NCBI GenBank assembly: GCA_963737905.1
Contig: CAVTUQ010000009.1
Location: 32,001-96,000, forward strand
DNA from: an uncultured delta proteobacterium
GTDB taxonomy: Bacteria; Desulfobacterota; Binatia; UBA9968
Direction of reading: 5' to 3'
Length of the DNA stretch: 64,000 bases
In this document: in pieces, positions 15,090 to 63,477 of the stretch
How the letters are laid out: every line of letters begins with the position of its first letter
Position numbering within the stretch: the first letter of the stretch is position 1
Position numbers and translations under genes: made by a program
The notes under the pieces: model-generated
What the model saw: only the letters and a program-made list of their open reading frames with translations
Databases searched by the model: none
Told to the model about the DNA's origin: nothing

Positions 15090-15091
15090 CG

Positions 15092-46827: not shown

Positions 46828-46834
46828 CGAATAT

Positions 46835-46950: not shown

Positions 46951-46954
46951 GGAT

Positions 46955-48310: not shown

Positions 48311-48322
48311 CTACAAAAAAAC

Positions 48323-48386: not shown

Positions 48387-48388
48387 TT

Positions 48389-48775: not shown

Positions 48776-49020
48776 CACGGCTTAGCGGAATCGTTGGCGA
48801 GCCGTGCCTTTCTGGACCTCGTTCCGCTAGAGAAGGGACGACGCGGAGATCAAGAGTTTTATCGCGTCTTCCAATGGTGATTTTGTGATTTGCTTTAACT
48901 ATCCCACCTCGCACGGCCGTTCAGTCAACTGACCATGGATGAGAACGTGTAGCCCGTCAAGGACGGCGGTGGCAACTGGGTGTGGTAAGTCCCCGACTCA
49001 ATCACGCCCAACACCTTGCC
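48776..49020 (+). promoter_or_regulatory. Structured 5' leader, candidate cis-regulatory RNA
   Basis: Interleaved pairings 48776-82/48800-06 and 48783-90/48822-29, further hairpins, and a long stem at 48971-49020 abutting the SD; TTGACA at 48742. Confidence 0.4.
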
Positions 49021-49036
49021 GGAGGGAGGGTTCAAC

Positions 49037-50887
49037 ATGAAATTTCGAATCATCGGCCACGTTTTTGTACTGCTTTGCATCGCGGCCTCTGCCGGAGTCA
49101 CCCTTCTCAAGCTCTCTCCCGCTGCCGATCACAACGATCCCAATGCCGTCAACTCGATCTTCTCGGACATCGATGTCAGCGCTGCCGACCTTTACGATAT
49201 CTTCGGATGGCCAGCGGACGACACGACCGGCGGGGAAAAGGTCGTGATCGCGCTCACTTTCGCCTCGGTTCCCAAGGCCGGCGTCTTTGATTCCGACATG
49301 TTGTACCGCATTCTAGTCAGTCCGACTCCACGGGTTGCGCCGCAGCTCAAAGATGATGACGGTCTGGAAGTGGTGCTAAAGTATTTCGAAGCGATCAAGA
49401 CCAACTATGCGAGCCTCAAGCCGGAGGAAGTCCGGGTCACGGTCGATAAGGATGGCCGGGCGAAAATTAATTTTATCGGCTTTCCCGGTGGCAGCTTTGT
49501 CAAGGTCATCGACACCAATAAAGTTACTACGATCGACACGCCAGACGGCAACTCGCTCCAAGCTTATATCGGTGGCCGCGACGATGCGTTTTTTAACGAT
49601 CTGCCCGGCTTTTTCCGTTCCATCAACTATGCGCCGCAGTTCTATGACGTTCCTCACACAATGACGGATACCCGCGAGCTGAAGATACCCAAAACTCTGA
49701 TCGAATTGGAAGGCAACAAACTATTCAATTTTGACCCCGCCAATCCCAAGCACGGCCAGGGAGTCAAGCTCAAACTGCCGGCAGGCCCGCTCACGTGGAG
49801 CGGCAACAAATATTTCAAGGACAATAACGGCAATTACCGCTTTGTATACAGCGGAAAGGACGCGCAAGCCGGCAGAAACATCAATGCGATCATTCTCGAA
49901 ATGCCTCTGGCTTTTCTTACGAAATCGCCGGACGTGGACCGCATCGTCAACACGTGGGGCGAGAGCTGGGTCCTCAAGGCCGCTCATAAAATCGAAACGA
50001 TCCCCGATGACCGCGCCCCGGTCAAGGGACCCTTCCTGCTTCAGTATCCGTGGCTTGTCGGGGGCATCGCGATCTTGCTTGGCGCGCTGCTGATCCTTCT
50101 TGGGTTCAGAGCCTTGTCGCAACGCTCCGCCAACTCCTGGGCCAGGCCCGCCAGCCGCTTTATTCTGGGCATTGTGCTCGTGGTCTTGGGCGCGGGCTAC
50201 GGCATCATCGTCGGTAAGTTTGCCGCCCAGAAGCCCGAACTCGCGCGGCCCGAGTACCAACTCGACGACGAGTTGAAAAGATACAAGCTTGTCGATACCG
50301 ACGGCCAGGCTTTCGCCGATGCCGGTTTGAGCGAGCGGGAGGATGACCGGCAATTGGGGGCGTTCAATTTCTGGCTCGCGCCCCACTTCATCACCCGGCT
50401 CGCCCATTTGGGGTGGGGCTTCGGACCGTCGATCACCGCGTTGGGACTACGTACTTCCTTCGATCATGACAACTCTCCGATTTCCGTATACAAGACATAC
50501 GCTTCGCCGATAGAGGCTTTTCCGCGGGTCAAGAAAGTCGTGCTCCAGCAACTGAACATGCCGGACGACACGTGGAACAAAAAGAAGCTAAACATTCCGC
50601 TGCGGCGTGGCGTGGAGATCTTCATACCCAACGTCAACGCCATCGACATGGATACGACCGGCACGTGGCCGTTCGGGCGGCGCCCGGAGGATCAGGTCGC
50701 CACCCGGTTTCTCTCGTTGTTTCTCGATATGAAAGCGGAGATCAACGGCAAGCGCTACAACGTCGAAACGCTGGGGGATCAGTCTTTGTGGGATCACGCG
50801 CCAGTCGAGCCGAAGACGCCGCCCAATCCACTGAAAAACGACAAGGAATTTCTCAAGCAGTTTCCTTATCTGGCGGAGCCGTGGTGA
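49037..50887 (+). CDS. DUF4331-like exported protein with internal TM hairpin
   Basis: Signal peptide, ADHNDP, GGRDDAFFND, NINAIILEMP, PFGRRPEDQV, FPYLAEPW. Confidence 0.7.
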   Translation: MKFRIIGHVFVLLCIAASAGVTLLKLSPAADHNDPNAVNSIFSDIDVSAADLYDIFGWPADDTTGGEKVVIALTFASVPKAGVFDSDMLYRILVSPTPRVAPQLKDDDGLEVVLKYFEAIKTNYASLKPEEVRVTVDKDGRAKINFIGFPGGSFVKVIDTNKVTTIDTPDGNSLQAYIGGRDDAFFNDLPGFFRSINYAPQFYDVPHTMTDTRELKIPKTLIELEGNKLFNFDPANPKHGQGVKLKLPAGPLTWSGNKYFKDNNGNYRFVYSGKDAQAGRNINAIILEMPLAFLTKSPDVDRIVNTWGESWVLKAAHKIETIPDDRAPVKGPFLLQYPWLVGGIAILLGALLILLGFRALSQRSANSWARPASRFILGIVLVVLGAGYGIIVGKFAAQKPELARPEYQLDDELKRYKLVDTDGQAFADAGLSEREDDRQLGAFNFWLAPHFITRLAHLGWGFGPSITALGLRTSFDHDNSPISVYKTYASPIEAFPRVKKVVLQQLNMPDDTWNKKKLNIPLRRGVEIFIPNVNAIDMDTTGTWPFGRRPEDQVATRFLSLFLDMKAEINGKRYNVETLGDQSLWDHAPVEPKTPPNPLKNDKEFLKQFPYLAEPW

Positions 50888-50923
50888 GGCTTTCGGGGCG
50901 GAGAAAACCCTGCGTACAGGACG

Positions 50924-52192
50924 GTGATGCCAATGCGATTGTTCAAGCCGATGCTAATCCTAGTGGCGGCGGTCTGTTTGTCGTTTCCCTTGACCAGTCT
51001 GAGCCACCGCAAACCAAGCCCACTGACGGACTATGAGCTCGAGCTGGCGCAAATCGAAAAGGACATCGCTGAGATCGAAGGCGACGTATTTACCCCTCCG
51101 GTCGATATCGACAAGGGCCTCAAATTTCTGCACCGCATGTATCACCGCGTCCAGCTCACCGGCGGTGTGGCCGATGTGCAAGCGATGGAGCCCGCTATCG
51201 ATCGCGCGCTCCGGGAGCTCGGACCCTTGACGGGTCTCTACCTTCTCAAGGCCAATCTCGATTTCAAGCTTCATCGGCTGAAGCAAGCCGACCAGGACAT
51301 CGCGGCGCTTTCCCGGTTCGCGGGCGATGCGCGAATCGTGGCCCTAAAAGCCGGCATCGACTTTCAACGGGGCCGATACGAAGCCTCAAAAATGGGTTAC
51401 CTGAGCGCGGTCGAAAAAAACTCCACCTGGGATAATCTTGCTCGGCTCGCCTATGGGTTAGGGAAGTTCGGTGATGTCGATCTCGCCGACCGCCTGTACC
51501 GTCAGGCGGAAGAGGACATCTCGGTCAAGGAGATGCGCGCGTACGCCTGGGTGGAGTTGCAAAGGGGACTGTTGGATTTGAACCGGGGCCGCTATGACGA
51601 AGCGATGGGCCATTACCGGCAGGCCGGGAAGGCGTATTCCGGTTACTGGCTGGTCGATGAGCACATGGCGGAGCTTTTGGGCGCGACCAAAAAGTTCGAC
51701 GCGGCGGCGGCGCTTTACGAGTCGGTGGTCGCGCGTGCGCCGCTGCCGGAGCTTCAGCAGCGGCTCGGCGATCTCTACGTGTTCATGGGCAAGCCCGAAC
51801 AGGCAAGACCGTGGCACGACAAGGCGTTGGCGGGCTATCTCGATTCTGCGGCGCGCGGCGAGGTCAACTACTATCATCATCTCGCCGGATTTTATGCCGA
51901 CGTGCGCGGGGATGGCGCCGAGGCGGTTAAATGGGCAGAGAAAGACCTCGCGCTGCGCCCCCACTTCGCCACCCAGGACGCGCTGGCTTGGGCGTTGTAT
52001 CGCGCCGGCCGCTTCGAAGAAGCGCGTAACGTAAGCCGTGAAGCGCTTTCGTCCGGCGTAAAGGACGCGCACCTTTTCTTCCACGCCGCGATGATCCATC
52101 TGGCGGCCGGAAAAACCGACGAGGGCAAACAGCTTCTAAAGAAAGCCGGGGAGATCAACCCCGGCTACGAGAATTTTCATGCGCATCGCTGA
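50924..52192 (+). CDS. Exported TPR-repeat protein
   Basis: Signal peptide; helical repeats, DALAWALYRAG, FFHAAMI. Confidence 0.8.
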   Translation: MMPMRLFKPMLILVAAVCLSFPLTSLSHRKPSPLTDYELELAQIEKDIAEIEGDVFTPPVDIDKGLKFLHRMYHRVQLTGGVADVQAMEPAIDRALRELGPLTGLYLLKANLDFKLHRLKQADQDIAALSRFAGDARIVALKAGIDFQRGRYEASKMGYLSAVEKNSTWDNLARLAYGLGKFGDVDLADRLYRQAEEDISVKEMRAYAWVELQRGLLDLNRGRYDEAMGHYRQAGKAYSGYWLVDEHMAELLGATKKFDAAAALYESVVARAPLPELQQRLGDLYVFMGKPEQARPWHDKALAGYLDSAARGEVNYYHHLAGFYADVRGDGAEAVKWAEKDLALRPHFATQDALAWALYRAGRFEEARNVSREALSSGVKDAHLFFHAAMIHLAAGKTDEGKQLLKKAGEINPGYENFHAHR

Positions 52193-53300
52193 ACGATTGA
52201 AGCTGTTTTTAATTTGCCTCTTCGTCTGGGCGGCCGTAGCGCCGCGCATCGCGACGGCGCATCCAGTGGCGCAAGGCGCGCTGGAGATCGTCGTACTTCC
52301 GGAACGAGTTAGCATGACCGCCCGGGTATCTATGGAAGAAGTGATCGTCGCCGAAGCTTACGTCGGGCGGAAAAACGCTTCGGCCCTGGAGATGGTGCAC
52401 GCGCACGGCGCGTATCTGCTCGCGCATTTCCGCGTCGCGGCGGATGGGCGGTTGCTCGACGGGCGCGTGGTCAAAGTTCCCGAACAAGCCAACGGCCGCC
52501 CGAGCTACCAGCTCGAATACCGGCTCGCGGGCGGCGCGCCCGGGCAAGTTGCGTTGGAACAGGACGTGCTGCGCGAGTTCGAGTTCGCGCCGGGCAATCC
52601 ATGGGAGGCGAGTTACGTGGTGCGTGTCCGGCGGGATGGCGGACCTGCGGTTGAGGGCTTGTTGTTGAGTTCCAAGCAGCCACTCATTCTCGATTTGAAC
52701 CGGATAACGTCCGGCATCGATAAAGCGCGGATGGTGAAGGAATACATTCATCATGGGATCATGCACATCCTGTCGGGTTATGATCATCTCCTCTTCATCG
52801 CCGCGCTGGCGCTGGCTGTCGCGACCTTGTGGGACCTGGTCAAAGTCATCAGCGCCTTTACGCTTGCCCACTCGATCACGCTCACGCTCTCAGTGCTGAA
52901 CGTCGTCAGGCTGCCGGAAAATATCGTCGAACCGATGATCGCGGCGAGCATCGTGTTCGTCGCCCTTCAGAACGTGATCGTGCCCGAGCGCAGCCGCGGC
53001 GCCGGCAGACTTTGTGTCGCTTTCTTTTTCGGTCTTTTCCACGGCCTCGGCTTCGCGGGTGGTCTACTCAGCGCGATGGAAGGAATGGCCGGTTTGGCGG
53101 TGGGTCTGGCCATCGCTGCGTTCAGCGCAGGGGTCGAGATCGGTCATCAAGTGGTCGTTCTCCCGATTTTTTGCGCTCTAAAAATGATGCGCGAGCGGAT
53201 GTCTCAGCAGTCGGCTTCAATTCCCGAACGTGTGCTGCGGTACGGTTCCGCCGGGATTTGTGCGGCCGGTATGTTCTACTTGGTTGCAGCGTTGCATTGA
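52179..53300 (+). CDS. HupE/UreJ-family membrane protein with N-terminal exported domain
   Basis: GIMHILSGYDHLLF, SAFTLAHSITL, FGLFHGLGFA, GVEIGH. Confidence 0.88.
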   Translation: MRIAERLKLFLICLFVWAAVAPRIATAHPVAQGALEIVVLPERVSMTARVSMEEVIVAEAYVGRKNASALEMVHAHGAYLLAHFRVAADGRLLDGRVVKVPEQANGRPSYQLEYRLAGGAPGQVALEQDVLREFEFAPGNPWEASYVVRVRRDGGPAVEGLLLSSKQPLILDLNRITSGIDKARMVKEYIHHGIMHILSGYDHLLFIAALALAVATLWDLVKVISAFTLAHSITLTLSVLNVVRLPENIVEPMIAASIVFVALQNVIVPERSRGAGRLCVAFFFGLFHGLGFAGGLLSAMEGMAGLAVGLAIAAFSAGVEIGHQVVVLPIFCALKMMRERMSQQSASIPERVLRYGSAGICAAGMFYLVAALH

Positions 53301-53360
53301 GATTACCGGCAAAGTTACCCAGCAACGGCTGCCGAACGGACGGAGCGGTAAGGAGGAAGA

Positions 53361-56087
53361 ATGAGCAGGAAAGATTGTTGTGTCGGAATATTGATGCTGC
53401 TCTGCGCGATCATCCTCGCGAGTTGCGGAGATCGGCCGAAGCCGGGCACCGTAGTGGACGAGGCCAAGAAGGCAGGGCTGACGGCCAAGGACCTGCCGGG
53501 ATCGGACGACGACTACCTGCGTGCCATGGATCGCGGCCTGGATGAAGAGGCGGTGCACAAAGCTCTGCCCTTCCTGTCCAAGGAAGAGGCCTGGAAGTCT
53601 TATAACCGAGGCCGCAACAACTGGGTCGTCTGGACGGCAGGCAACGACACGCTCTGGGATTACTTGGCCAACAACGCCTTCGGCGCCTTCGATCTATTGA
53701 AGATTGTCTCCTCCCATCCGGGGATCAGGTATTGCGGCAACAAAACCCCCGTGTACGGCTACGGCGGCAAGGGCGATTACGCCAAAGACCAGCAGTCCGA
53801 ATACGGCAAGGAGAAATCTTCTCCGGCACCGTATCCGCCGGGTTACTACGCTTACGACGAAGATGACGAGTGCAAGGGCGACGACCGCCAATTCTACGAA
53901 GTCTCCCGCGAGAACCGGTGGAAATATCTCGGCCTGGTCAACGAACCGGGCCTCCAACAGTGGGACCCCAAGGGCTGCGACTGGAAGAACGACAAGAAGA
54001 CCGATGACGAACCGTACGGCAAGTGCGGCGACCCCAATCGTTTCGGCCTCTGGCTGGACAAGCGCGTCGGCGCTCCCGACCCGTTCGAGGATGAGAAGAA
54101 ATATCCGGGCGTGAAAGTCGGAGCGCGTGGGAAGACCGTTCCGGCCGGCTCCTACTACGGCTATGCGAGCGGCGTCGTCGGACTACGACTCTTTCCCAAT
54201 CCCGCTTTCGACGAAGCGGCCAAAAAGAAATGGGATCCGATCAGGTACTACACCGACCCGGATTACTACAGCGACAAAAACCTGGTGCGCCCGTATCGGG
54301 TCGGGATGTCCTGCGGCTTTTGCCACGTCGGTCCAAGCCCCACCGAACCTCCCAAAGATCCCGAGAATCCGGAATGGAAGAACCTCAACTCCAACCCCGG
54401 CGCGCAGTACTTCTGGCTGGACAGAATCTTTTTCTGGAATCCGTATAAGCGGCACGAGAACTTCATCTACCAACTCTTCCACACTTCGCTTCCGGGGTCG
54501 CTCGACACCTCCCTCGTTTCTAGCGATAACATCAATAACCCGCGCACGATGAACGCCGTCTACAGCATCGCGGCACGTCTAAAGATGGCCGAGTTTCACC
54601 CGGAAAAATTGACCGGTGGCGAGCGCAACAACAGGCAGTTCAACGACTTCGACAGAACCAAAGTTCTCTCAAAATACTTCATACCACCGGACACCGTCCT
54701 CGCGCCTCACGTTCTAAAAGACGGCGCCGATTCGGTCGGCGTACTCGGAGCTTTGAACCGCGTGTACATCAACATCGGCCTTTTTAGCGAGGAATGGCTG
54801 CTCCATTTCAAGCCGCTGATCGGGAACCTCCCCGGAAAGAGGATCACGCCCATCGAGATCGCCGTACTGGAGAAGAATTCCACTTACTGGAACGCCAACG
54901 TGACGCAGACTCCCGATCTGGCGCTGTTTTTCCTCGCGAGCGCCCGGCCCGATTACTTGAAAGAAGCGGCTGGCGGCAAGGACTATCTCACCACGGATCA
55001 AAAAAAGCTCAATCACGGCAAGATCGTCTTTGCCGAGAACTGCGCGCGTTGCCACTCGGGGAAACAGCCACCGCCACCGCCCGAAATCGACTATGCAAAG
55101 TGCGGCGGTCCCGGTTACCTAGATTGCTGGAACCGCTACTGGAGCTGGACCAAGACGGAAGCGTTCAAGAAGCAGATGCGCGAGATCGTCATGCGCGACG
55201 ATTTTCTGGAAGACAATTTCCTCTCCACCGAGCTTCGCGTTCCCGTCACCTTGCTCCAGACTAACGCGTGCAGCCCGCTTGCGACCAACGGTCTCAGAGG
55301 AGACATATGGGACAACTTCACCTCCACGACCTACAAGGAGCTGACTGCCGTCGGCAAATTCACCGTCCACAAACCCAAGACGGGCGAGGCCTGGGAGTAC
55401 GACATGCCCGGCAAAGGGCGCGGGTACACCCGCCCCGCGTCGTTGATCAGCCTGTGGTCGACGGCGCCGTACTTGCTCAATAACGCTGTTGGACCTTTCT
55501 ACGGAGAACCCAGCGTCGAGGCGCGCATGGCGTCTTTCAACGAATCGATCCAGCAGATGCTCTGGCCGGAAAAGCGCCAGAAGGACTCGCTTCTGGGAGA
55601 CAAAGTCCCCGGCTACATGCAGCGCACGACGACGAGAAGTTACCTGAGAGTTGCGTGGGGATACTTGCCGGGGCAATTCGCGGCGTTTATGGACTGGCTT
55701 AGCGGCTGGCTCCCCTGGCTCTTTGGCCAAACCGGGCTTGAGATCGGCCCGATCCCCAAGGGAACGCCGGTCGGCCTCCTGGCCAACTTGCCATTGGTGT
55801 CTGAGAGCGAGCGTCCGGAAGACCGAGTGGCGTATGCCGAAAAGGTGATTGATTTGCTGAAAAAGGCCGGCAAGGATTTGAAGTCTCTGCCAGCCAATGC
55901 GACCGACGAGCAGGCGCGCGAGATCTTCGCCGGCGTCGGAGATCAGTTGCTAAAGCTCAGTAAGTGCCCCGACTTCGTTGTCAACCGCGGCCATTATTTC
56001 GGCACCAGTTATTTCAAGGATAAAGACGAGCCGGGACTCAGCGACGATGACAAGTGGGCGCTGATCGAGTTTTTGAAAACATTCTAG
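53361..56087 (+). CDS. Large di-haem cytochrome c lipoprotein (CCP/MauG/RoxA-like)
   Basis: LASC lipobox; CGFCH and CARCH; LWSTAPYLLNN; C-terminal LIEFLKTF. Confidence 0.8.
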   Translation: MSRKDCCVGILMLLCAIILASCGDRPKPGTVVDEAKKAGLTAKDLPGSDDDYLRAMDRGLDEEAVHKALPFLSKEEAWKSYNRGRNNWVVWTAGNDTLWDYLANNAFGAFDLLKIVSSHPGIRYCGNKTPVYGYGGKGDYAKDQQSEYGKEKSSPAPYPPGYYAYDEDDECKGDDRQFYEVSRENRWKYLGLVNEPGLQQWDPKGCDWKNDKKTDDEPYGKCGDPNRFGLWLDKRVGAPDPFEDEKKYPGVKVGARGKTVPAGSYYGYASGVVGLRLFPNPAFDEAAKKKWDPIRYYTDPDYYSDKNLVRPYRVGMSCGFCHVGPSPTEPPKDPENPEWKNLNSNPGAQYFWLDRIFFWNPYKRHENFIYQLFHTSLPGSLDTSLVSSDNINNPRTMNAVYSIAARLKMAEFHPEKLTGGERNNRQFNDFDRTKVLSKYFIPPDTVLAPHVLKDGADSVGVLGALNRVYINIGLFSEEWLLHFKPLIGNLPGKRITPIEIAVLEKNSTYWNANVTQTPDLALFFLASARPDYLKEAAGGKDYLTTDQKKLNHGKIVFAENCARCHSGKQPPPPPEIDYAKCGGPGYLDCWNRYWSWTKTEAFKKQMREIVMRDDFLEDNFLSTELRVPVTLLQTNACSPLATNGLRGDIWDNFTSTTYKELTAVGKFTVHKPKTGEAWEYDMPGKGRGYTRPASLISLWSTAPYLLNNAVGPFYGEPSVEARMASFNESIQQMLWPEKRQKDSLLGDKVPGYMQRTTTRSYLRVAWGYLPGQFAAFMDWLSGWLPWLFGQTGLEIGPIPKGTPVGLLANLPLVSESERPEDRVAYAEKVIDLLKKAGKDLKSLPANATDEQAREIFAGVGDQLLKLSKCPDFVVNRGHYFGTSYFKDKDEPGLSDDDKWALIEFLKTF

Positions 56088-56123
56088 CTCGATGTGCAAC
56101 TACGACGTGAAAGGAAATCACGG

Positions 56124-57308
56124 ATGAAAAAGACAGCCCTATTCTTTCTCGGTCTCGTGCTACTTCTCTTTCCGGCAGCCATCAAGAGTTCGGATCACGC
56201 CGATCCGATCAATCTTGAAGTGTTGGAATCCGGCATCACCGACCTCTTCGCCTTTCCGGACGGTGACCAGATGATCGTCATCCTCAATACCCGGCGGGCT
56301 CTGACCGCGCCGCCGCCGTACCAACTCGAGCCTTTCGAGTTCGCGATCTTCATGGACCTTCACACCCAAGTCACTGTCGACAACGCCGAGGAGCGCGCGC
56401 GCTACGGCGGTTCGATCGCCAACCCCGAAGGCATCAAACCCGACGTCACGATAAAAATCCGCCTCAAGAACGACGTCACGTTGAACAGCATCCAGTACCA
56501 AGGTCTGGAAAACACCAATGGCATCAAGCTGTTCACCGGCGTGCGCGACGACCCATTCATTTTCCCGCGCTTTTTCAAGCGCAACACGATTGCAATGGTG
56601 CTGAGCATCCCGTTCTCCGCGTTCCCCCAGGACCAGCGGGACTGGATACTGTGGGCGACCTCGACGCGGCTAAAGGACGGCGTGCAGATCGACCACGTCG
56701 GCCGGTCTAATCGTTCGCAGCAGGGCCGGTTTGATTTCTTAAACACGCTGCCGCCGAGCCAGCACGTGGCGGCGATCAAGGCGTATAACCAAACCAGGGT
56801 GCGAATCGAGAAGTCCCTGATGGAATACTTGCCGCCGCTCGTGAACGGGTTTCAACCGTTATTTAAAATTCGCTCCTACGACTATTTCCCCGACGTGATG
56901 ATCTACACCAAGCAATATCCGATTGGATTTCCTAACGGACGGACGTTGACCGACGACGTCGCGCTGTTGACTTGCGAGCAGGGGGACTGCCCGCTGGTCG
57001 AGAGCGCCTATGTTGACAGCCCGCAGTGGCCGCGCGCGACGGTCAATGACAAGCCGTTCCTGAAAGAGTTTCCCTATCTCGCAGAGAAGTGGGAAGAAAG
57101 TGAAATAGCGCCGAAGCCGGCAGAGCCTGTCGGTGTTTTCAGCGCGCTGGCGGCGGCCTGGGACACCGGGAAATTCTTTACCGAAGCGACCGCGAACTGC
57201 TGCACGCCGGTCAAGAGAACTGCGATTGCGGCGATCATTCTGGTGCTCCTGATAATACCGATATTGGTCTGGCTGATTACTCGATGGCGTCGCCGGGTGA
57301 AAACCTGA
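56124..57308 (+). CDS. DUF4331-like exported protein with C-terminal TM anchor
   Basis: SSDHADP, ITDLFAF, GVRDDPF, GFPNGRTLTDDV, FPYLAEKW. Confidence 0.75.
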   Translation: MKKTALFFLGLVLLLFPAAIKSSDHADPINLEVLESGITDLFAFPDGDQMIVILNTRRALTAPPPYQLEPFEFAIFMDLHTQVTVDNAEERARYGGSIANPEGIKPDVTIKIRLKNDVTLNSIQYQGLENTNGIKLFTGVRDDPFIFPRFFKRNTIAMVLSIPFSAFPQDQRDWILWATSTRLKDGVQIDHVGRSNRSQQGRFDFLNTLPPSQHVAAIKAYNQTRVRIEKSLMEYLPPLVNGFQPLFKIRSYDYFPDVMIYTKQYPIGFPNGRTLTDDVALLTCEQGDCPLVESAYVDSPQWPRATVNDKPFLKEFPYLAEKWEESEIAPKPAEPVGVFSALAAAWDTGKFFTEATANCCTPVKRTAIAAIILVLLIIPILVWLITRWRRRVKT

Positions 57309-57338
57309 TCACGCGATCGTCTTTAGGGAGCGGAAGTT

Positions 57339-58412
57339 ATGGATGCGGAGTTTTTCGGGATTGAAGGAATCACCGATGAAGATCGCGCCTATCAAGGCTC
57401 GCGGTTCTCGGAGGTGCAGGGCGTGCTCTTTGCCAATCCTTACCAGAAAGTTTGGGGCCGCGCCGGCGAGCCCCCGTTGCCCGTCTACGAAGTGACGCTC
57501 GGCAGCGTTTTGCGCGGCGTCCTGCCGTTCGGCGAGCCGTATCTGTTTCGGAAGGCCACCGAGCGTGCCGTCGATTCGCACGCCGATTTGCGTTGGGGCC
57601 CCGACCGCAAGGGTTATCGCCGCCTGCTTCATCCGAACGGTATATGTCTTACGGGCTTTTGGGAGATCACCGAAGAGAATCCATATTCGGGTTACTTCCA
57701 AAAAGGCAGCCGGGCGCTGGCGATCGGACGCTATTCCACCTGCTGCACGGAAACGCGGCGCGGCCATGCGCGCTCGCTGTCGTTGGTGGGGAAGCTCTAT
57801 CCCACCACTGACCCGAAGCACTTAGAGCCGTTTCACACCGCCAACTTCATCACCCAGCAGGATATCGGCGGTGACTATAGCGACTATATCAACGACGCGG
57901 AAGTGCGCAACGCTCCCGACACCCGCCTCTGGCGCCGGGGGGGCGCCGTGCCGGTTCTGCTGGTGACGGGCGCGGTGTTTCAGCGCGTCGATAAGCAACC
58001 TTCGCAGCGCCAGCTGTATCAGATCGCCGAGCTTGGCAAGCCGAAGGACGCGCCCACGCGCGCGCCGGAGTTCATGCGCCTGTTGGTCGCGCCGGAGCAG
58101 CCCAGGATCGAAGGCGCAGCGTTAGATTTTCGCGACGAGATCATGGCGCAGATTTTCGATAAGGGCGATCCGAAGCCAAAGCGCACGCTCACCTTCAACA
58201 TCGAAGTGACCGACGAGGGATCGACGCGCGGATTGCCGTTCTTCCAGCGACGCTCGTTCAAGAATTGGCGCCGCATCGGAAGAATGGTCTTCGATAACGC
58301 CGTCGCCTCTTACAACGGTGATTTCGTCATCCACTTTAGCCATCCCACCTGGCGCAACGATCGCAACGACCCCTCGACCACCGCCCGCGTCGGCGGGCGT
58401 AAAGTGCGCTGA
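57339..58412 (+). CDS. Catalase-related haem protein (short, catalase-like fold)
   Basis: RRLLHPNGICLTG, IGRYS, SLSLVGKLY and ANFITQ resemble the catalase distal-His/beta-barrel motifs. Confidence 0.55.
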   Translation: MDAEFFGIEGITDEDRAYQGSRFSEVQGVLFANPYQKVWGRAGEPPLPVYEVTLGSVLRGVLPFGEPYLFRKATERAVDSHADLRWGPDRKGYRRLLHPNGICLTGFWEITEENPYSGYFQKGSRALAIGRYSTCCTETRRGHARSLSLVGKLYPTTDPKHLEPFHTANFITQQDIGGDYSDYINDAEVRNAPDTRLWRRGGAVPVLLVTGAVFQRVDKQPSQRQLYQIAELGKPKDAPTRAPEFMRLLVAPEQPRIEGAALDFRDEIMAQIFDKGDPKPKRTLTFNIEVTDEGSTRGLPFFQRRSFKNWRRIGRMVFDNAVASYNGDFVIHFSHPTWRNDRNDPSTTARVGGRKVR

Positions 58413-58460
58413 CGTTGCGGCCTTCGAACGGTGACGAAGAAGATGCGAACGAGGTGAACT

Positions 58461-60344
58461 ATGAACTCAGGAACTAACGGACAGAGTGATTTTGAATACA
58501 TCGTGGTCGGCTCGGGCGCCGGCGGCGGAACCGTCGCGGCGCGATTGGCAGAGGCCGGGCACAAAGTGCTCGTACTGGAAGCGGGCGGCGACCCGTACAA
58601 ACTGAAGGGCGGTGTGCGGTGGGACCCGAAAAGAATCAGCTTGCCGGACGATTATGACGTTCCGTGTTTCCACGGTATCTCCACCGAGAGTGACGCGATC
58701 CGCTGGGACTTCTGGGTGCGTCACTACAGCAACGATCAGCAGCAGCAGAAAGACCCCAAGCATCGCGACATCAACGGAGAGCCCAGGATACTCTATCCAC
58801 GAGCCGGGGGCTTGGGAGGCTGCACGACGCACAACGCCATGATTACGGTCTACCCCCACAACAAGGATTGGGAAGATCTCGCCGATCTGACGGGCGATCC
58901 TTCGTGGAAGGCGGAGAACATGCGCAAGTATTATCAGCGCATGGAGAACTGTCATTATCGAAGGTTTCCGTGGCGGTGGATATACAAACTCTTTGGCTGG
59001 AATCCCATACGTCATGGCTACGACGGCTGGCTCTCCACAGAAGTCGCGGTTCCGGTTGAGGCGCTGAAGAAAGATAAACGACTCGTGGAGGTGATTGTAA
59101 AATCGGCCAAAGCCGCGGCAAAGAGTGTTGAGATGCCCGTCAAGCGTGTCTGGTGGTCCTTGCTCGGCCGGCTCGACCCGAACGACTGGCGCTTGGTGAA
59201 CGATAACGCGGTCGGAATTCGGCTGCCGCCTTTGGCCACGTATCGGCGCCGTCGCAACGGCACACGGGAATTTTTGCTGGATGTCCAAAAGAGATATCCG
59301 GGCAATCTGACCATAGAGCTTAACGCTCTTGCAACCAAAGTGTTGTTCGATGGGAAGAATCGAGCGGTCGGCGTCGAGTATCTCAAGGGCGAGAGGCTGT
59401 ACCGGGCCCACTGCGATCCCAGTGATCAGCCGAGCGAAGAAAAGTCGGTCCGGGCAACGCGCGAAGTGATCCTCGCAGGCGGCGCCTTCAACACGCCGCA
59501 GCTTTTGATGCTTTCCGGAATTGGGCCGAAGGACGAGCTGAAGAAACACGGCATCGATGTTCGCGTCGGTCTTCCCGGCGTGGGACGAAATCTCCAGGAC
59601 CGCTACGAGGTCGGCGTCGTCAACCGGATGAAAACAGACTGGACTGTCCTTAAAGACGCCATGTTCGATACGAGTGACCCACAGTTCCAAGATTGGAAGG
59701 GAAGCCAACGCGGCGTCTACATCACCAACGGGGCGGTCATCGCTGTCATCAAAAAGTCGGACAAGTCGCGCCCGCTACCCGATCTCTTCTGCTTCGCGCT
59801 GGTGGGTAAGTTTCGCGGCTACGAGCCGAACTATTCGCAGGAGATCGTCCTTCACCACAACTATCTCACCTGGGCGGTTTTGAAGGCGCATACGAACAAC
59901 ACCGGAGGCACAGTCGCTTTGAAATCCGCCGACCCACGCGAAACGCCCGAAATTAATTTCCACTACTTCGAAGAAGGGACGGGCAAATGGGAAGAAGACG
60001 TCGAGTCGGTGGTCGGTGGCATCAAGTTTGTCCGCGCGATCAACTCACACGTCCAGGATGTTTTCGAGGAAGAAGAGGCGCCGGACCAGGAGGAGCGAAA
60101 GGATCTGGCTCAATTCGTAAAGGATAACGCCTGGGGCCATCACGCCTCCTGTACTTGCAAGATCGGGCGCCAAGACGATCCGATGGCGGTCCTCGACGGC
60201 AATTTTCGAGTGTATGGGACCGAGGGCCTGCGCGTGGTCGATGCCTCCGTGTTTCCAAGGATCCCGGGATTTTTCATCGTTACTTCGGTTTACATGATCG
60301 CGGAAAAGGCGGCCGACGTGATTCTCGCCGATGCGAGAAGATAA
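58461..60344 (+). CDS. GMC oxidoreductase (FAD-dependent)
   Basis: VVGSGAGGG, LGGCTTHNAM, TPQLLMLSGIG, HHASCTCKIG, LRVVDASVFP. Confidence 0.93.
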   Translation: MNSGTNGQSDFEYIVVGSGAGGGTVAARLAEAGHKVLVLEAGGDPYKLKGGVRWDPKRISLPDDYDVPCFHGISTESDAIRWDFWVRHYSNDQQQQKDPKHRDINGEPRILYPRAGGLGGCTTHNAMITVYPHNKDWEDLADLTGDPSWKAENMRKYYQRMENCHYRRFPWRWIYKLFGWNPIRHGYDGWLSTEVAVPVEALKKDKRLVEVIVKSAKAAAKSVEMPVKRVWWSLLGRLDPNDWRLVNDNAVGIRLPPLATYRRRRNGTREFLLDVQKRYPGNLTIELNALATKVLFDGKNRAVGVEYLKGERLYRAHCDPSDQPSEEKSVRATREVILAGGAFNTPQLLMLSGIGPKDELKKHGIDVRVGLPGVGRNLQDRYEVGVVNRMKTDWTVLKDAMFDTSDPQFQDWKGSQRGVYITNGAVIAVIKKSDKSRPLPDLFCFALVGKFRGYEPNYSQEIVLHHNYLTWAVLKAHTNNTGGTVALKSADPRETPEINFHYFEEGTGKWEEDVESVVGGIKFVRAINSHVQDVFEEEEAPDQEERKDLAQFVKDNAWGHHASCTCKIGRQDDPMAVLDGNFRVYGTEGLRVVDASVFPRIPGFFIVTSVYMIAEKAADVILADARR

Positions 60345-60410
60345 GGAGATTCGGCGATTCCTGGTGCGTACAAAAATTTTTTACGCTGGTCGGCCTGCCT
60401 AAATGCGGAA

Positions 60411-63298
60411 TTGTTTTACCTGCCGGTGCTGAGCAGGCCGGTCCCTTGTCTCATAGTGGCCGCGATGCTCTCCTTTGGAGGATGCGCCGGCAAGCCGGGG
60501 GATTTGATCGCTTGCGGCAAAGTCGCATGGAGTGGGTTTCGCAAGGTTGCCGACGACCGAGCCGAGCGGTTCCTGGGCAAGGTCAAAGAGGAGACCGCCC
60601 GCTGCCGCGGCGGTGAGAAAGCCGTTGAGTCACGGGGCCTGCCATGGGTCGACTGGCAGAATTACTGGGCAACGGGCGACATCGCTAGCAAAGGACCGGA
60701 GCCGCTCTGGAAGCTCGGGCACCTGAGCCCCAACGGCCGTGGCATCGACGGTGCGCTGCTCGATCTCGAATATCAGCGCATGGAGTTGATCAAATTCAAC
60801 CTCTTCGACAACAGCGGGACCTACAAAGATTACGTGCGCGGCCGCGACGGCTTCGAGGTGCTGCGCTGAAGATTTGGGACGAGATGCGGTTGCCCAAAGA
60901 CCATCCGCATTATGCAGCCGTCGGCGGCGATGGCCAGCAGCTCTGCCGGGGCGAGTTGATTCGCTTCCGCAACCTGACCGGAATTTGCAACGATATCAGA
61001 AATCCGCTCATGGGCTCGGCCGATCAGCCGTTCGCGCGCAACGTTCAATTCGAGGTCACCTTCCCGGATTTGGGCCAAAACTTGTATGCGCGAAACCGGC
61101 ACGGCGATCGCCTGGGGCTGTTGAAGCCAGACCCGCAGGTGATCAGCCGCAAGCTCTTCACGCGCGCCCAATCGCATCCTGAAAAATGCCGCGCGGGGCA
61201 CGGGCTTCCAGGTGATTCGGCCCAGGCGGAATGCGATTACAAGAAAGCGCCGTTCTTCAACGTGCTGGCGGCCTTCTGGATCCAGTTCATGACGCACGAT
61301 TGGTTCTCGCACTTGGAGGAAGGGCACAACTCGCCTGAGATGATGACGGTGGGCTGTGCGTCGCAGCGGATCGGGGATATCGAGCAGCCGTTGAATCCGC
61401 AGCAAGTTGCAAAATTGGGCTGCCGTCCCGGAGATCGGATGGACAAGAGCTATGTGAGTGAGGTCGGCGAACCTTCAAAGTTCACTCATCAGGGAAGGGA
61501 GTATCTGAATCGTGCGTACAAGACCACCCGCAATACCGTTACGGCATGGTGGGACGCCTCGCAAATTTACGGATGGGATGAGGCCTCGCGGCAGCGCGTC
61601 AAGCGCGATCCCAGCGATCCGGCGAAATTGCTAATGCTATCGACACGCTCCGGCGAAGCGCAAGGCTACCTTCCGGTGTTCGGCGCTTCCGATCCAATCA
61701 ATCCCCAGTGGGCCGGACAGGAAGCGACGGCCTTCCCGGACAACTGGACGATCGGCCTGAGTTTTTTTCACAATGTCTTCGCCCGCGAGCACAACCAGTT
61801 TGTCGATGAGTTCAGAAAACGCGTTGCGGATAAGCCGGATGAAGACTCGGGCCTGCGCAATCCGGCGCGGCCGGATGAGAAGATTCCCTATAAGAATGTG
61901 ACGGCGGACGAACTTTTTGAAATCGCTCGGCTCGTCGTCGCCGCAGAGATCGCCAAGATTCACACCCTCGAATGGACGCCGCAGTTGCTTTATGATGAGC
62001 CGCTCCACCTGGCGATGAACGCCAATTGGCACGGACTGTTTCGCGGTAAGGACTTGGTCCAGGCAGCGCTAGAGAAAATCATCGCCAACAGCTTCAGCCA
62101 ATCAAAAGACCCAAAGAAAGCCGGCAAGTGGTACTCGGTCTTCGCATCGGGCCCCGGAATCTTCGGCCTCGGCAGTCGCGTGTATACGGACGACGCGATC
62201 TTTGCGAAATACGACCCAAAAAAAACCGATATCTGGAGCCTGAAAAACCCCGATCACGTCAATGGCGGGACCAATCACTTCGGCTCGCCATTCAACTTTC
62301 CGGAAGAGTTCATCACGGTGTACCGGCTGCATGCGATGGTTCCCGATCTGATCGAATATCGCGAGTCGGGGAAATATCCGAACGTGATCCTTAACAAGAT
62401 CCCGGTGGTAGACACCTTTCGCGGCCGCGCCACCACGGCGATGCGGAAGCGCGGGCTGGCGAACTGGGCGCTCTCTATGGGGCGCCAGCGACTGGGGGTG
62501 CTCACGCTGCAGAACCATCCACAGTTCCTGCAGAACCTGGAACTGCCCCGGCTGCACAGCGCGACGGGGAAGATCGATGTGGCGGCGCTCGACATTATCC
62601 GCGACCGCGAGCGGGGCGTGCCGCGCTTTAATGAATTTCGCCGCCAGTACGGTCTCAGGCAACTGACGAGCTTCGACGATTTCGTCGACCGGCGGCTGCC
62701 CAAGGACTCCCCCGAGCTGGCGGAACAGGAACGATTGATGGGTATCCTGCGGGAGGTGTACGGTCAGCACAAATGTGACGCTTCGAAAATTATCACTACG
62801 GCGCAGGTGAACGACGACGAGAAGCATACGCCGATCAACGACTGCCTGGGACACGCCGACGGAAGCCTGGTGGACAACATCGAAGATGTCGATACGGTCG
62901 TCGGTTGGCTCGCGGAGTTTCCCAGGCCGCACGGTTTCGCGATTTCCGAAACTCAATTTCAGGTTTTTATCCTCAATGCGTCACGCCGGCTCTTTAGCGA
63001 CCGGTTTTTTACTTCGAGCTTTCGCCCGGAGTTTTACAGCCACCTCGGTGTGAAGTGGATCAATGAAAACGGCCCTGACGGTGTAATCAAGGAGAAGAAC
63101 AAGTCGAACGGTCGTGAGGTCGAGATCTCGCCATTGAAACGAGTCTTGCTGCGAACCATTCCGGAGTTGGCGCCGGAGCTCGCACCTGTCGTGAACGCGT
63201 TCGACCCGTGGGCCCGCGATCGTGGCGAGTACTATTCGTTAAACTGGAGGCCCCGCCCTGGAGCTGAGTCAGATCAGGTGTTCAGAGTTTTGCAATGA
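60411..63298 (+). CDS. Haem peroxidase-cyclooxygenase family lipoprotein, alpha-dioxygenase-like; frameshift near 60857
   Basis: ORFs 60411-60869 and 60884-63298 join if one G is added (FEGAALKIWDEMRLP); WIQFMTHDW, EEFITVYRLH, RDRERGVPRFNEFRR, GFAISET..ASRRLFSDRFFT. Confidence 0.85.
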
Positions 63299-63477
63299 GT
63301 CGCCGCGTCTGCCAACTGTCGGGGGTCATGGGCCGTCGCTCGAGTGGCCGAAAAGACTCATCAGCGCCATTTATAACGCCAAAGACTCTATAGCTCAGGC
63401 AACAATTCGCAAAGCCGCCAAGTCAGATGCGTCAATGATCTTCAATCGGTTCTCCGCGTCACGTAATTCACGCACCC

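Follow-up and report, generated by a model that had tools for sequence, protein, structure and literature searches.

Eight genes in the 64-kb stretch of DNA analysed here (the window) probably oxidise fatty acids across the cell envelope. Their conserved core is a pair of genes, encoding a di-haem c-type lipoprotein (g4) and a GMC flavoprotein (g7), which is tightly linked across phyla, is usually accompanied by DUF4331 and TPR genes, and is near-obligate in genomes carrying the catalase-fold protein g6. The more specific reading, an envelope-spanning fatty-acid oxygenation system of the oxylipin type that is undescribed in the literature searched, we hold at somewhat under even odds (about 45%). 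The original prediction knew of no described pathway with such an architecture, and none was found; DUF4331 (PF14224) is unmentioned in the literature searched.

The eight ORFs lie on the + strand at positions 49016/49037–63298 and encode, in order, a DUF4331 protein (g1), a TPR protein (g2), a HupE_UreJ_2 protein (g3), g4, a second DUF4331 protein (g5), g6, g7 and an alpha-dioxygenase-like protein (g8). The domain calls made beforehand for all eight were confirmed, mostly by Pfam matches, that of g4 by its two CXXCH motifs and that of g6 by fold alone. Intergenic gaps from g1 to g8 are 36, −14, 60, 6, 30, 48 and 66–81 nt, the negative value being the 14-nt overlap of g2 and g3, which bears out the expected run of co-oriented, closely spaced genes. 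The longest g1 ORF begins with TTG at 49016, and an ATG at 49037 is preceded by GGAGGGAGG. Promoter-like sites (7 against 5.9 expected) and terminator-like sites (20 against 19.5) occur at chance level, so a single transcript is neither shown nor excluded by them. Contigs from one RNA library cover g6, the GMC gene and the GMC/g8 junction with 0–2 mismatches, which is weak support, since DNA carry-over is possible. Judged by eye from the translations, g1, g2, g3 and g5 have signal peptides, g4 (..ILASC) and g8 (..SFGGC) have lipoboxes, and g6 and g7 have neither. The six export signals first reported can thus be reached only by counting an out-of-frame N-terminal piece of g8. Since g6 and the GMC protein lack export signals, the system is not purely one of the envelope, as first labelled.

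Same-strand clusters with most of these families are present in MAGs labelled Syntrophobacteraceae, Binatia, Rokubacteria and Acidobacteriota. Locus L004 reads g1-g2-g3-g4-g5-g6-S8-GMC-DOX, where S8 is a protease, and L003 reads HupE-g4-g5-g6-GMC; L038 (Binatia) has g4-GMC-unknown ORF-g6-S8-alpha-DOX-type, L009 (Rokubacteria) TPR-HupE-DUF4331-g4-GMC-..-alpha-DOX-type and L088 (Acidobacteriota) DUF4331-TPR-g4-GMC-patatin-g6-S8, each on one strand. Across 50 genomes bearing g6, g4 was found in 46 and one g7 ortholog in 44; in 41 of the latter, g4 and g7 lie no more than 10 kb apart. Among 151 Acidobacteriota, g6 occurred in three and g4 in seven, with g4 in 3/3 g6-positive genomes against 4/148 g6-negative ones; 41 relatives of the window's genome yielded g6 in two and g4 in 13. 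PF14224 was present in 39/50 g6-bearing genomes and 0/14 controls, and within 10 kb of g4 in 23/46 genomes. Distances were computed manually, taking contig number to equal the ordinal in the record name, which agreed at L004, L006, L007, L009 and L038.

The proposal of a coherent gene set co-occurring across phyla was therefore sustained by the neighbourhoods, whereas that of eight genes as a conserved unit was not: the recurrent part is g4 plus GMC, often with DUF4331 and TPR genes. Around it are variable additions, namely patatin lipases, alpha-dioxygenase-type haem enzymes, one lipoxygenase, the S8 protease and HupE_UreJ_2. The window's lineage has HupE_UreJ_2 and the alpha-dioxygenase and lacks the genes for patatin and the S8 protease that other versions carry. 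That unrelated modules came together by chance in this lineage and share no function is highly improbable. The context of g6 does vary (Calvin-cycle genes at L079, an alpha/beta-hydrolase and defence genes at L066), only 12/50 genomes have g6 no further than 16 kb from g4, and accessory gene order and content differ between phyla. Against chance stand the genome-level co-occurrence of g6 and g4 (46/50 versus the 4/148 above), the close neighbourhood of g4 and GMC, natural fusions of DUF4331 and g6 domains, and the re-assembly of the same families, variously ordered, in four or more phyla.

The main part of g8 (60884–63298, +) is an alpha-dioxygenase-type haem domain of the peroxidase-cyclooxygenase superfamily (PF03098, An_peroxidase, 4.2e-70). 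Its best solved relative is rice fatty acid alpha-oxidase 4kvj (3e-58), and 4hhr also matches (2.1e-50). It contains the motifs WIQFMTHDW, VYRLH, RDRERGVPRFNEFRR and ASRRL..DRFFTS, which in a g8 ortholog align with their rice alpha-DOX counterparts, and both g8 and the L038 enzyme retain the catalytic motifs, including the Tyr-x-x-His and the carboxylate Arg pair. In this assembly g8 is interrupted by a one-base frameshift near 60856. The ORF at 60411–60869 (+), which encodes a lipoprotein signal and a ~130-aa domain out of frame with the remainder, matches residues 19–141 of the intact 960-aa ortholog P0271 of L004 (63% identity, 1e-53); in contigs from runs X1, X4 and X9, which come from three other studies, a single additional C after 60856 brings the two parts into one frame. 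An alpha-dioxygenase or peroxidase occurs in only 11/50 g6-bearing genomes and, being missing from 39/50, is not essential to the core. Of the 11 genomes with an An_peroxidase, six have it no more than 10 kb from GMC, g4 or g6.

Lipid genes recur beside the core. Patatin genes adjoin it in at least nine genomes (G042, G043, G049, G066, G082, G085, G089, G090 and G151), although patatin is common anyway, with at least one gene in 50/50 genomes (several copies each) and in 8/14 controls, so part of this adjacency, which derives from the matches listed, may be chance. At L089, GMC-g4 adjoins genes for a lipoxygenase (6.5e-58), a second An_peroxidase and an alpha-DOX-type enzyme. The lipases concerned are patatin and alpha/beta-hydrolase types, and the fatty-acid dioxygenases are of the alpha-DOX type apart from the one lipoxygenase. 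These neighbours strengthen the earlier suggestion of O2- and peroxide-dependent chemistry on lipids, and since the core recurs beside them in many soil bacteria, the cluster probably oxidises fatty acids.

The same genes could be read as peroxide and lipid-peroxide defence and repair, in which GMC, g4, g6 and the variable haem peroxidases would clear H2O2 or lipid hydroperoxides from either side of the membrane and patatin would excise damaged acyl chains, with no signalling or catabolic product. Consistent with this are the four haem peroxidase-type kinds at the core (the g6 fold, An_peroxidase, DyP-like at L086 and L089, and di-haem g4), the adjoining patatin and the aerobic soil bacteria that carry the genes, according to record titles and soil runs. 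We nevertheless consider defence unlikely: alpha-DOX motifs and lipoxygenase typify makers rather than removers of hydroperoxides, a GMC oxidase would add peroxide, and the window's genome already encodes a standard large catalase.

The lipoprotein g4 (53361–56087, +; 908 aa) belongs to a Pfam-less family of 800–900 aa with at least 6438 homologs, none of which has a functional name. Two CXXCH motifs (C318-x-x-C321-H322 and C561-x-x-C564-H565) are invariant in 23/23 aligned homologs and lie 243 residues apart, compared with 245 in PA2077 and 235 in PA2078 in the available portion of the source (PMC4496055). The proposed RoxA/MauG-type identity found weak evidence only: an NF040606 match, a weak one to cytochrome c peroxidase that scores 37.8 bits where the cut-off is 150, together with Atlas look-alike clusters that include RoxA-like_Cyt-c (score 0.95, 23% of members; 0.92, 100%). 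A motif resembling the MauG signature has, by eye, Leu where MauG has His. A 23-sequence profile of g4 matched no RoxA, MauG or peroxidase in the PDB, there was no CCP_MauG Pfam match, and a structure search with the poor predicted model (pLDDT 48.6) found nothing.

Its partner g7 (58461–60344, +) matches GMC_oxred_N (4e-23) and GMC_oxred_C (8.6e-27). Among solved structures, those closest to it are unspecific alcohol and choline oxidases, with choline dehydrogenase 9lq0 nearest (1.5e-44), and orthologs begin directly at the FAD-binding motif, with no export signal, in 7/7 aligned. The feeding of peroxidases by GMC oxidases is known from fungi, and some bacteria oxidise Mn(II) with animal-haem peroxidases. 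By such precedents, the cluster might be an extracellular or periplasmic oxidant generator that attacks insoluble polymers or minerals (polyisoprenoids as RoxA does, humic or lignin-like matter, Mn(II)), with GMC as the H2O2 source for the haem enzymes. The RoxA-like look-alikes of g4, a large secreted-type S8 protease accompanying the cluster in L004, L038 and L088, and the soil habitat all agree with this. We regard it as very unlikely, however, given a GMC protein without an export signal, the fatty-acid carboxylate-binding Arg pair in g8, haem enzymes that are lipoproteins or membrane-tethered rather than secreted, and lipases and a lipoxygenase that point to acyl lipids.

The 357-aa g6 (57339–58412, +), from a Pfam-less family without a signal peptide, has at least 3237 homologs across phyla at 68–90% identity. 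It had been called catalase-like, which stands at the level of fold but not of sequence, where no Pfam, NCBIfam or PDB match was found. Its predicted model (pLDDT 88.2, pTM 0.90) has as best Foldseek matches coral AOS-LOX 3dy5, the Mycobacterium avium catalase-related protein 3e4w and cAOS 1u5u; VIA gave Z-scores of 11–12 over 184–206 residues and 180 chains at Z of at least 8, and among the matches listed 50/50 are catalases or catalase-related proteins. In a weak hhalign alignment with catalase (E 0.041, probability 1.3%), H98 would correspond to the distal His, R131-x-S133 to VRFS and K152 to the Lys of RGFAVK. Y325, which occupies the proximal-ligand position of catalase, is not conserved within the family, and secreted relatives have Asp/Glu-x-Cys there. 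Among 150 representatives listed, the g6 domain is C-terminal in 13 proteins of 699–1061 aa, eight of which give sub-threshold DUF4331 matches; residues 21–441 of one, P0128, its N-terminal half, align with g5 (39% identity, 8e-48). In this natural fusion, membrane helices connect a DUF4331 domain of the g5 type with the g6 domain, and the predicted topology places the latter in the cytoplasm.

The short-type DUF4331 protein g5 (56094–57308, +; PF14224 9.8e-8, 32.1 bits) is exported, carries ..SSDHADP at its N-terminus and ends in a membrane anchor, a helix followed by RWRRRVKT. The long type (about 520–620 aa), g1 (49037–50887, +; PF14224 2.8e-10, 40.4 bits, above cut-off), is also exported, with a mature N-terminus of ..ADHNDP, and has an extra stretch of ~75 aa with two hydrophobic helices that is missing in 4/4 aligned orthologs (L004, L084, L006 and L007). 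Orthologs of g1 adjoin TPR genes in these four loci and in L088. The exported TPR protein g2 (50924–52192, +) has 17 TPR-type Pfam matches; its counterpart adjoins the long DUF4331 gene in L004, L006, L007 and L088, and in L009 sits at the 5′ end of the cluster, directly before HupE_UreJ_2. The membrane protein g3 (52179–53300, +; PF13795, HupE_UreJ_2, 7.6e-38) has an N-terminal periplasmic part. Its family is present in 31/50 g6-bearing genomes and 0/14 controls, adjoining DUF4331 genes in nine genomes and g4 in only 2/50.

Metal delivery, a role first suggested for the DUF4331/TPR/HupE module, is a candidate function. A divergent HMA-like ORF lies just upstream of the cluster and, with HupE_UreJ_2, points to metals rather than lipids. 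HupE/UreJ proteins are Ni/Co permeases, and in MbnH/MbnP a di-haem enzyme modifies a periplasmic partner. On these precedents the cluster could serve metal or cofactor acquisition and metalloprotein maturation: DUF4331 proteins would bind metal or haem in the periplasm and partner the HupE-like permease, g4 would, like MauG or MbnH, oxidatively mature a partner such as DUF4331, and the oxidases would be clients. The nine adjacencies of HupE_UreJ_2 and DUF4331 (six with canonical full-length DUF4331, away from g4), the D-H-x-D-P start and invariant Asp-rich motifs shared by both DUF4331 paralogs in alignments, and the HMA-like ORF accord with this. It is quite unlikely all the same, as HupE_UreJ_2 is rarely beside g4 and is absent from 19/50 g6 genomes, the DUF4331 profile matched no solved metal-binding protein, no metal-sensing riboswitch was found and no metal regulator gene seen in 48000–64000, and the tight g4-GMC pairing, lipases and dioxygenases are left unexplained.

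We favour fatty-acid oxygenation, in which one conserved multi-protein system on both sides of the inner membrane would use O2 and peroxide to oxidise acyl lipids, whether fatty acids or others. On the periplasmic side, g8, a lipoprotein, would work as alpha-dioxygenases do and convert free fatty acids to 2-hydroperoxides and aldehydes of shorter chain length. The same hydrophobic compounds may be substrates of g4, acting as a large, monomeric oxygenase or peroxidase with two haems; the model for this role comes from Pseudomonas aeruginosa, with its periplasmic di-haem oleate 10S-dioxygenase and diol synthase. The DUF4331, TPR and HupE-like proteins would bind or pass substrate, metal or cofactor at the membrane. 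Nostoc punctiforme offers a precedent for a dioxygenase with a catalase-related partner, namely its 10S-DOX and hydroperoxide lyase, as described in the accessible part of PMC13049297; that pair is a simple tandem, whereas here g6 is predicted to be cytoplasmic and g8 periplasmic, so the two cannot form such a tandem. At the cytoplasmic face, g6, tethered via g5, would convert a hydroperoxide or use H2O2 at a catalase-type haem pocket. The alcohol, hydroxy acid or aldehyde hydrate that results would be oxidised by the GMC enzyme, a possible source of the peroxide.

The eight genes all lie on the + strand of the window: g1 (DUF4331) at 49037-50887, g2 (TPR) at 50924-52192, g3 (HupE_UreJ_2) at 52179-53300, overlapping g2 by 14 nt, g4 (di-haem c lipoprotein) at 53361-56087, g5 (DUF4331) at 56094-57308, g6 (catalase-fold protein) at 57339-58412, g7 (GMC flavoprotein) at 58461-60344, and g8 (alpha-dioxygenase-like, DOX), which is split over two frames at 60411-60869 and 60884-63298. 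The ATG of g1 follows a Shine-Dalgarno-like stretch, GGAGGGAGG, with open reading frame fill from 49016. Gaps between the genes are 6-81 nt, bearing out the original prediction of eight co-oriented, closely spaced genes; Pfam and NCBIfam likewise agree with its calls for DUF4331 (g1, g5), TPR, HupE_UreJ_2 and GMC. The six export signals it had proposed are also present, as signal peptides in g1, g2, g3 and g5 and lipoboxes in g4 and in the out-of-frame first ORF of g8, while g6 and g7 have neither; signal peptides, lipoboxes and membrane helices were all called by eye. Scans for consensus promoters and terminators stayed at chance level across the cluster, and Rfam gave no credible RNA between 48000 and 64000 (one chance-level match, E 0.97). 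Contigs from one RNA library (sequencing run X19) match, at 0-2 mismatches, g6, the GMC gene and the GMC/g8 junction (60252-60440); they are a weak hint of transcription, since DNA carry-over is possible, and RNA-library contigs span 8 of 30 bins, with the uncovered parts uninformative.

Directly upstream, the same strand carries a pair of metallopeptidase genes, TldD/PmbA (45349-48310), an arrangement seen in none of the other annotated loci, and an EamA transporter gene is found downstream. Between pmbA and g1, a 69-aa ORF on the - strand (48389-48598), divergent from the cluster, matches the heavy-metal-associated (HMA) domain at 1.1e-6 over profile positions 17-62 only, without the usual N-terminal CxxC metal site. 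The source genome is a metagenome-assembled genome (MAG) of 46 contigs, 87% complete and 6.7% contaminated.

Conservation was assessed from the distribution of g6. In contigs representing one genome per species, 207 stretches encoded g6, of which 80 were kept (68-90% identity); counts refer to the 50 of these with long flanks, whose coordinates were compared by hand. Distances assume that contig number equals the ordinal in the record name, which agreed at every locus checked. The co-occurrence that had been predicted held for g4, present in 46/50 genomes, and for the g4-g7 pair: a single g7 ortholog (45-84% identity) was found in 44/50, on the same contig and within 10 kb of g4 in 41 of the 44. 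It did not extend to the dioxygenase, as An_peroxidase domains occurred in 11/50 (4 g8 orthologs and 7 more distant proteins; 6 of the 11 genomes have one no more than 10 kb from GMC, g4 or g6), nor to placement of HupE_UreJ_2, which was present in 31/50 versus 0/14 controls, with g4 as its neighbour in 2 genomes and a DUF4331 gene in 9. The DUF4331 model PF14224 matched in 39/50 versus 0/14 controls, within 10 kb of g4 in at least 23/46, a minimum given how weakly these subtypes score against the model. Patatin was present in 50/50 versus 8/14 controls and adjoined the core pair in at least 9 genomes, L088 included, and g6 itself lay within 16 kb of g4 in 12/50. In an Acidobacteriota background set of 151 genomes (150 drawn evenly plus the centre genome), g6 was found in 3 and g4 in 7, with g4 in 3/3 g6-positive versus 4/148 g6-negative genomes. 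Against these counts, with the loose placement of g6 on one side and the tight g4-g7 pairing on the other, we rate chance juxtaposition of the genes as close to negligible. We take the g4-GMC pair to be the hub of the system; g6 hardly occurs without it, and lineages differ in the partners recruited to it.

Both members of the pair were characterised by profile and structure searches. Two CXXCH motifs are invariant in 23/23 g4 homologues, and the family, with at least 6438 homologues in the searched collection, has no Pfam model or name. The rubber oxygenase RoxA and the MauG-type enzymes, which oxidise proteins or hydrophobic compounds, are large di-haem c-type proteins like g4. The proposal that g4 is of this type is weakly supported: the two CXXCH motifs and Atlas look-alike clusters carrying PF21419 (RoxA-like_Cyt-c), a lead only, favour it, but family models and solved members did not match. 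There was no PF03150 (CCP_MauG) match in Pfam; the match to NF040606 ('di-heme-cytochrome C peroxidase') was weak and sub-threshold (37.8 bits, cut-off 150); PF21419 reached E 0.048 in a single paralog; HMMER found no match to the solved RoxA and MauG sequences; and the g4 profile retrieved from the PDB only the haem motif of small cytochromes, at E 0.026 or worse. Comparison with the RoxA/MauG fold is uninformative because the g4 model is poor (pLDDT 48.6), and Foldseek finds nothing from it (best E 1.3).

One of the closest known systems is the oleate-diol synthase of Pseudomonas aeruginosa, PA2077/PA2078, described in the accessible part of PMC4496055 as 'fatty acid di-haem cytochrome c peroxidases', periplasmic and monomer-sized proteins of >60 kDa that act on fatty acids and their hydroperoxides. 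Set against that same text, the spacing of the CXXCH motifs is similar (243 residues in g4, 245 in PA2077 and 235 in PA2078), whereas the His of the MauG-type motif is replaced by Leu in g4 (PMC4496055). In contrast to the Pseudomonas enzymes, g4 is a lipoprotein of 800-930 aa, lacks a Pfam CCP_MauG or PDB RoxA profile match and is paired with a GMC flavoprotein (<10 kb in 41/44 genomes). We know of no GMC flavoprotein in the PA2077/PA2078 system. The g7 protein itself has both GMC domains (PF00732, 4e-23; PF05199, 8.6e-27), with GSGAGGG and WGHHAS, the active-site His pair, invariant in 7/7 orthologs, and reaches the cut-off of neither the choline dehydrogenase nor the MftG model. Selenocysteine, considered for four GMC orthologs flagged with one internal TGA, was rejected, the TGA being the normal C-terminal stop in all four.

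The g6 family is equally anonymous. No Pfam match was obtained even at E 10 (PF00199 included), no NCBIfam match, and no PDB sequence match at E 1, with no detectable relation to solved catalase-related proteins. At least 3237 homologues were found at E ≤0.001, the best 120 of which share 72-89% identity, with 'hypothetical protein' as the only source label present among them. Carriers among the 80 loci kept include MAGs labelled Acidobacteriota, Alphaproteobacteria, Rokubacteria/Methylomirabilota, Binatia, Planctomycetota, Gammaproteobacteria and Deltaproteobacteria, as well as Methylocapsa aurea. Identities of 68-90% between phyla point to strong constraint combined with horizontal spread, and the patchy distribution, with g6 in 2/41 relatives of the window's genome, suggests horizontal transfer; g4 was found in 13/41 of the same relatives (12/40 without the unpublished G012). 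In the Nitrosomonas communis MAG (L066), g6 is adjoined at 12764-15664 by a SIR2-TIR protein and a STAND NTPase, which look like a defence island, and then by an integrase; g6 may lie there in a mobile region.

A model of g6 built from 26 sequences (pLDDT 88.2, pTM 0.90) has a catalase core. The best Foldseek matches were the coral AOS-LOX 3dy5, the Mycobacterium avium protein 3e4w and the coral allene-oxide synthase cAOS 1u5u (E 2.4e-4 to 6.7e-4, probability 0.99-1.0). By VIA, 180 chains aligned at Z ≥8, and all 50 entries listed were catalases or catalase-related proteins, at Z 11.1-12.0 with rmsd 3.2-4.8 over 182-206 residues. The catalase-like assignment of the original prediction therefore holds for the fold but not for the sequence, which gave neither PF00199 nor a PDB match. 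H98 is kept in at least 90% of the 26 sequences, and R131 and S133 are invariant; in a weak hhalign alignment to the genome's own catalase (E 0.041, probability 1.3%), H98 falls on the distal His of RVVH, R131-x-S133 on VRFS and K152 on the Lys of RGFAVK. At the expected proximal position, A-S-Y325-N-G-D resembles the catalase F-S-Y-x-D, although Y325 is not conserved in the family, being replaced in P0135, P0151 and a secreted subgroup.

That subgroup comprises distant signal-peptide relatives of 310-330 aa (P0235, P0237, P0240, P0241, P0243, P0256, P0262, P0264 and P0267) in which AS[DE]xCD takes the place of A-S-Y-N-G-D. They may represent a secreted subfamily with Cys near the expected haem ligand, and the catalase-fold family may include members with Cys instead of Tyr as the ligand.

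Fatty-acid hydroperoxides are the substrates of the coral AOS-LOX and of the 33-kDa catalase-related protein of M. avium, both of them small proteins with a catalase core. Against these (3dy5, 1u5u and 3e4w), g6 shows an identity of 11-15%; VIA scores them level with ordinary catalases (Z 11.1-12.0), and the proximal Tyr varies within the g6 family. That family is also marked by an invariant Cys103 and by H332-F-x-H335, and we know of no counterpart to either. An alternative in which the cluster is a peroxide or lipid-peroxide defence system we consider unlikely.

Fusion proteins link g6 to DUF4331. Among the best 150 of 800 representatives, 13, with lengths of 699-1061 aa, have a C-terminal g6 domain, and 8 of the 13 have sub-threshold DUF4331 matches (20.3-26.7 bits). 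In P0128, residues 21-441 align with g5 at 39% identity (8e-48). The linker, read by eye, comprises three helices in P0128 and one in P0129, followed by basic residues, a topology that would leave DUF4331 external and the g6 domain cytoplasmic. The C-terminus of g5 likewise consists of a membrane helix and a positively charged tail, and the fusions lead us to regard g5 and g6 of the window as a probable split form of one transmembrane protein. PF14224 scores 40.4 bits for g1 and 32.1 bits for g5 (cut-off 27), these matches being partial, over positions 152-234 and 364-419 of the 421-position model; Atlas places g5 in DUF4331 clusters at 0.93-0.97, and a DUF4331 profile gave no useful match in the PDB (best E 0.66). 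At window about 50030-50260, g1 has some 75 aa, including two hydrophobic helices, that 4/4 aligned orthologs (L004, L084, L006, L007) lack; this insertion could be a lineage-specific membrane anchor or an assembly artefact.

HupE/UreJ proteins are Ni/Co permeases. The g3 product matches the related Pfam family HupE_UreJ_2 (PF13795; 130.1 bits, cut-off 24.5), and its mature N-terminus starts with His; PF13795 is, however, a separate family, linked to DUF4331 genes, and g3 has an extra periplasmic N-terminal region of about 185 aa. We know of no characterised member of PF13795. The DUF4331-HupE link is the foundation of another account, a metal/cofactor uptake and maturation system; with HupE_UreJ_2 next to g4 in two of the 50 genomes, it appears to us distinctly unlikely.

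The g8 product is an An_peroxidase (PF03098, 4.2e-70), and its assignment as alpha-dioxygenase-like is confirmed: its closest solved relatives are the plant alpha-dioxygenases from rice (4kvj, 3e-58) and Arabidopsis (4hhr, 2.1e-50), followed by lactoperoxidase (8e-7), and the motifs WIQFMTHDW (distal His), VYRLH (Tyr-x-x-His) and ASRRL..DRFFTS (Arg pair) are kept. We take the Tyr-x-x-His, with its proximal His, to be catalytic and the Arg pair to bind the carboxylate. In P0271, the intact 960-aa ortholog from the Syntrophobacteraceae-labelled locus L004, the distal-His, Tyr-x-x-His and Arg-Arg motifs align onto their rice counterparts. Plant and cyanobacterial alpha-dioxygenases, CalDOX and LepDOX (PMC8720084) among them, share the domain and all four catalytic motifs with g8. 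At its N-terminus g8 is longer, by a lipoprotein signal and a domain of about 130 aa; the alpha-DOX-type enzymes of Binatia and Rokubacteria bear an N-terminal TPR and membrane segment instead. The chemistry to be expected of g8 would run from a fatty acid through the 2-hydroperoxide to the one-carbon-shorter aldehyde.

In the window, g8 is not intact. Its first ORF (60411-60869) corresponds to residues 19-141 of P0271 (1e-53), so the gene is frameshifted just before 60869. One extra C behind 60856, in contigs of three DNA runs from three studies, joins the frames (depth 8.06 of 12.4 in X1, 10.5 of 10.5 in X4 and 4.11 of 4.11 in X9), nearly all the longest listed pieces of these contigs being ≥98% like the window. 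The break is therefore an assembly error or rare variant, and no property of the population.

Gene order and content differ between loci. L004 has g1-g2-g3-g4-g5-g6-S8 protease (1164 aa)-GMC-DOX, and L003 has HupE-g4-g5-g6-GMC. Binatia locus L038 reads g4-GMC-unknown-g6-S8-TPR/alpha-DOX type-FMN reductase, and Rokubacteria locus L009 TPR-HupE-DUF4331-g4-GMC, followed at some remove by the TPR/alpha-DOX type. An Acidobacteriota locus drawn at random (L088) has a MerR/TPR regulator followed by DUF4331-TPR-g4-GMC-patatin-g6-S8, while in Acidobacteriaceae (L006, L007) g6, patatin, TPR-DUF4331 and GMC all lie within 10 kb. Methylocapsa aurea (L083) has DUF4331-g4-GMC with TPR and patatin adjoining and g6 on another scaffold, and L084 has patatin-g4-GMC-DUF4331. 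In a second Nitrosomonas communis MAG locus (L089), patatin, An_peroxidase, lipoxygenase and an alpha-DOX-type gene stand back to back with GMC-g4; the row at L089:2889-9326 comprises the 535-aa An_peroxidase, the 555-aa lipoxygenase and the 1012-aa alpha-DOX-type gene.

On the other side of GMC-g4 in L089 (15139-19196) lie a 434-aa ORF without assignment, a DyP-like ORF and a 403-aa ORF. The first two of these also precede g4-GMC in L086, from the window's own genus, where the order is DyP-like gene, then the pair. An oxidant generator for polymer or Mn oxidation, to which the RoxA-like look-alikes of g4 would point, strikes us as very unlikely, with patatin and lipoxygenase genes found next to g4-GMC.

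An S8 subtilase (N-terminal domain) of 1160-1200 aa follows g6 in three phyla (L004:9601-13095, L038:7535-11020, L088:1640-5251). The window's cluster lacks it, and a search of the surrounding genome with the L004 protein gave no ortholog; that genome being 87% complete, its absence there is not established. The 401-aa membrane-anchored ORF between GMC and g6 in L038 (5176-6381), in the place of g5, was considered as catalase-like and rejected, with no PDB or Pfam match and no hhalign relation to g6.

Depending on the lineage, the hub has gained lipases, DyP-like proteins, a lipoxygenase or alpha-DOX-type enzymes of two kinds. Patatin, lipoxygenase and alpha-DOX share no substrates other than free fatty acids and acyl lipids; from this and from two precedents we propose a pathway for fatty-acid oxygenation whose steps are divided between the two sides of the membrane. 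One precedent is the Pseudomonas system; the other, in Nostoc punctiforme, is a linoleate 10S-dioxygenase with a catalase-related 10S-hydroperoxide lyase (Brash et al. 2014, as summarised in the accessible part of PMC13049297). As in the window, a fatty-acid dioxygenase of the peroxidase-cyclooxygenase superfamily and a small catalase-fold protein are there encoded by separate genes (PMC13049297). The two systems differ in that no sequence kinship between g6 and Pfam Catalase could be detected; g6 is also far more widespread than the dioxygenase (DOX in 11/50 g6 genomes), is fused to DUF4331 and not linked to DOX, and would lie on the opposite side of the membrane from the lipoprotein DOX. In the pathway that we favour, g8 and g4 would oxygenate fatty acids in the periplasm, g6 and GMC would finish the chemistry at the cytoplasmic face, and DUF4331, TPR and HupE_UreJ_2 would handle binding or transfer in the envelope. 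What the data show is that the genes form one set with ties to lipid enzymes; the mechanism beyond this we infer, and we give the reading as a whole a probability of roughly 0.45.

The enzyme superfamilies and the two-gene precedents are already known. A literature search over about 8.4 million full texts found no mention of 'DUF4331' or 'PF14224', the literature matches listed (titles and abstracts) included no relevant description of clusters combining GMC and di-haem cytochromes, and no published description was found of the core pair, the g6 family, the DUF4331-g6 fusion or the whole architecture. A bolder claim, which we hold as tentative and somewhat unlikely, is that this is a previously unrecognised bacterial machine, widespread in soil bacteria from at least five phyla, in which g4, a g6 wired through the membrane to DUF4331, DUF4331 itself and GMC carry out coupled lipid oxidation on both faces of the inner membrane. 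It might serve oxylipin signalling or lipid remodelling in bacteria, with alpha-DOX, lipoxygenase and DyP as exchangeable dioxygenases at its front end.

Both g4 and g6 represent large families without a Pfam model or name, and DUF4331 is a third family, one with no mention in the full texts searched. A function common to them would put an annotation on thousands of soil-genome proteins now called 'hypothetical'. The g5-g6 fusions offer a rare testable case of a periplasmic domain putatively coupled through the membrane to a cytoplasmic catalase-fold domain. Known bacterial cases of oxylipin-type chemistry are, to our knowledge, largely those of cyanobacteria and Pseudomonas aeruginosa. Should the lipid reading hold, such chemistry would be common in soil bacteria, and the cluster would provide novel haem- and flavin-based catalysts for fatty aldehydes and hydroxy acids.
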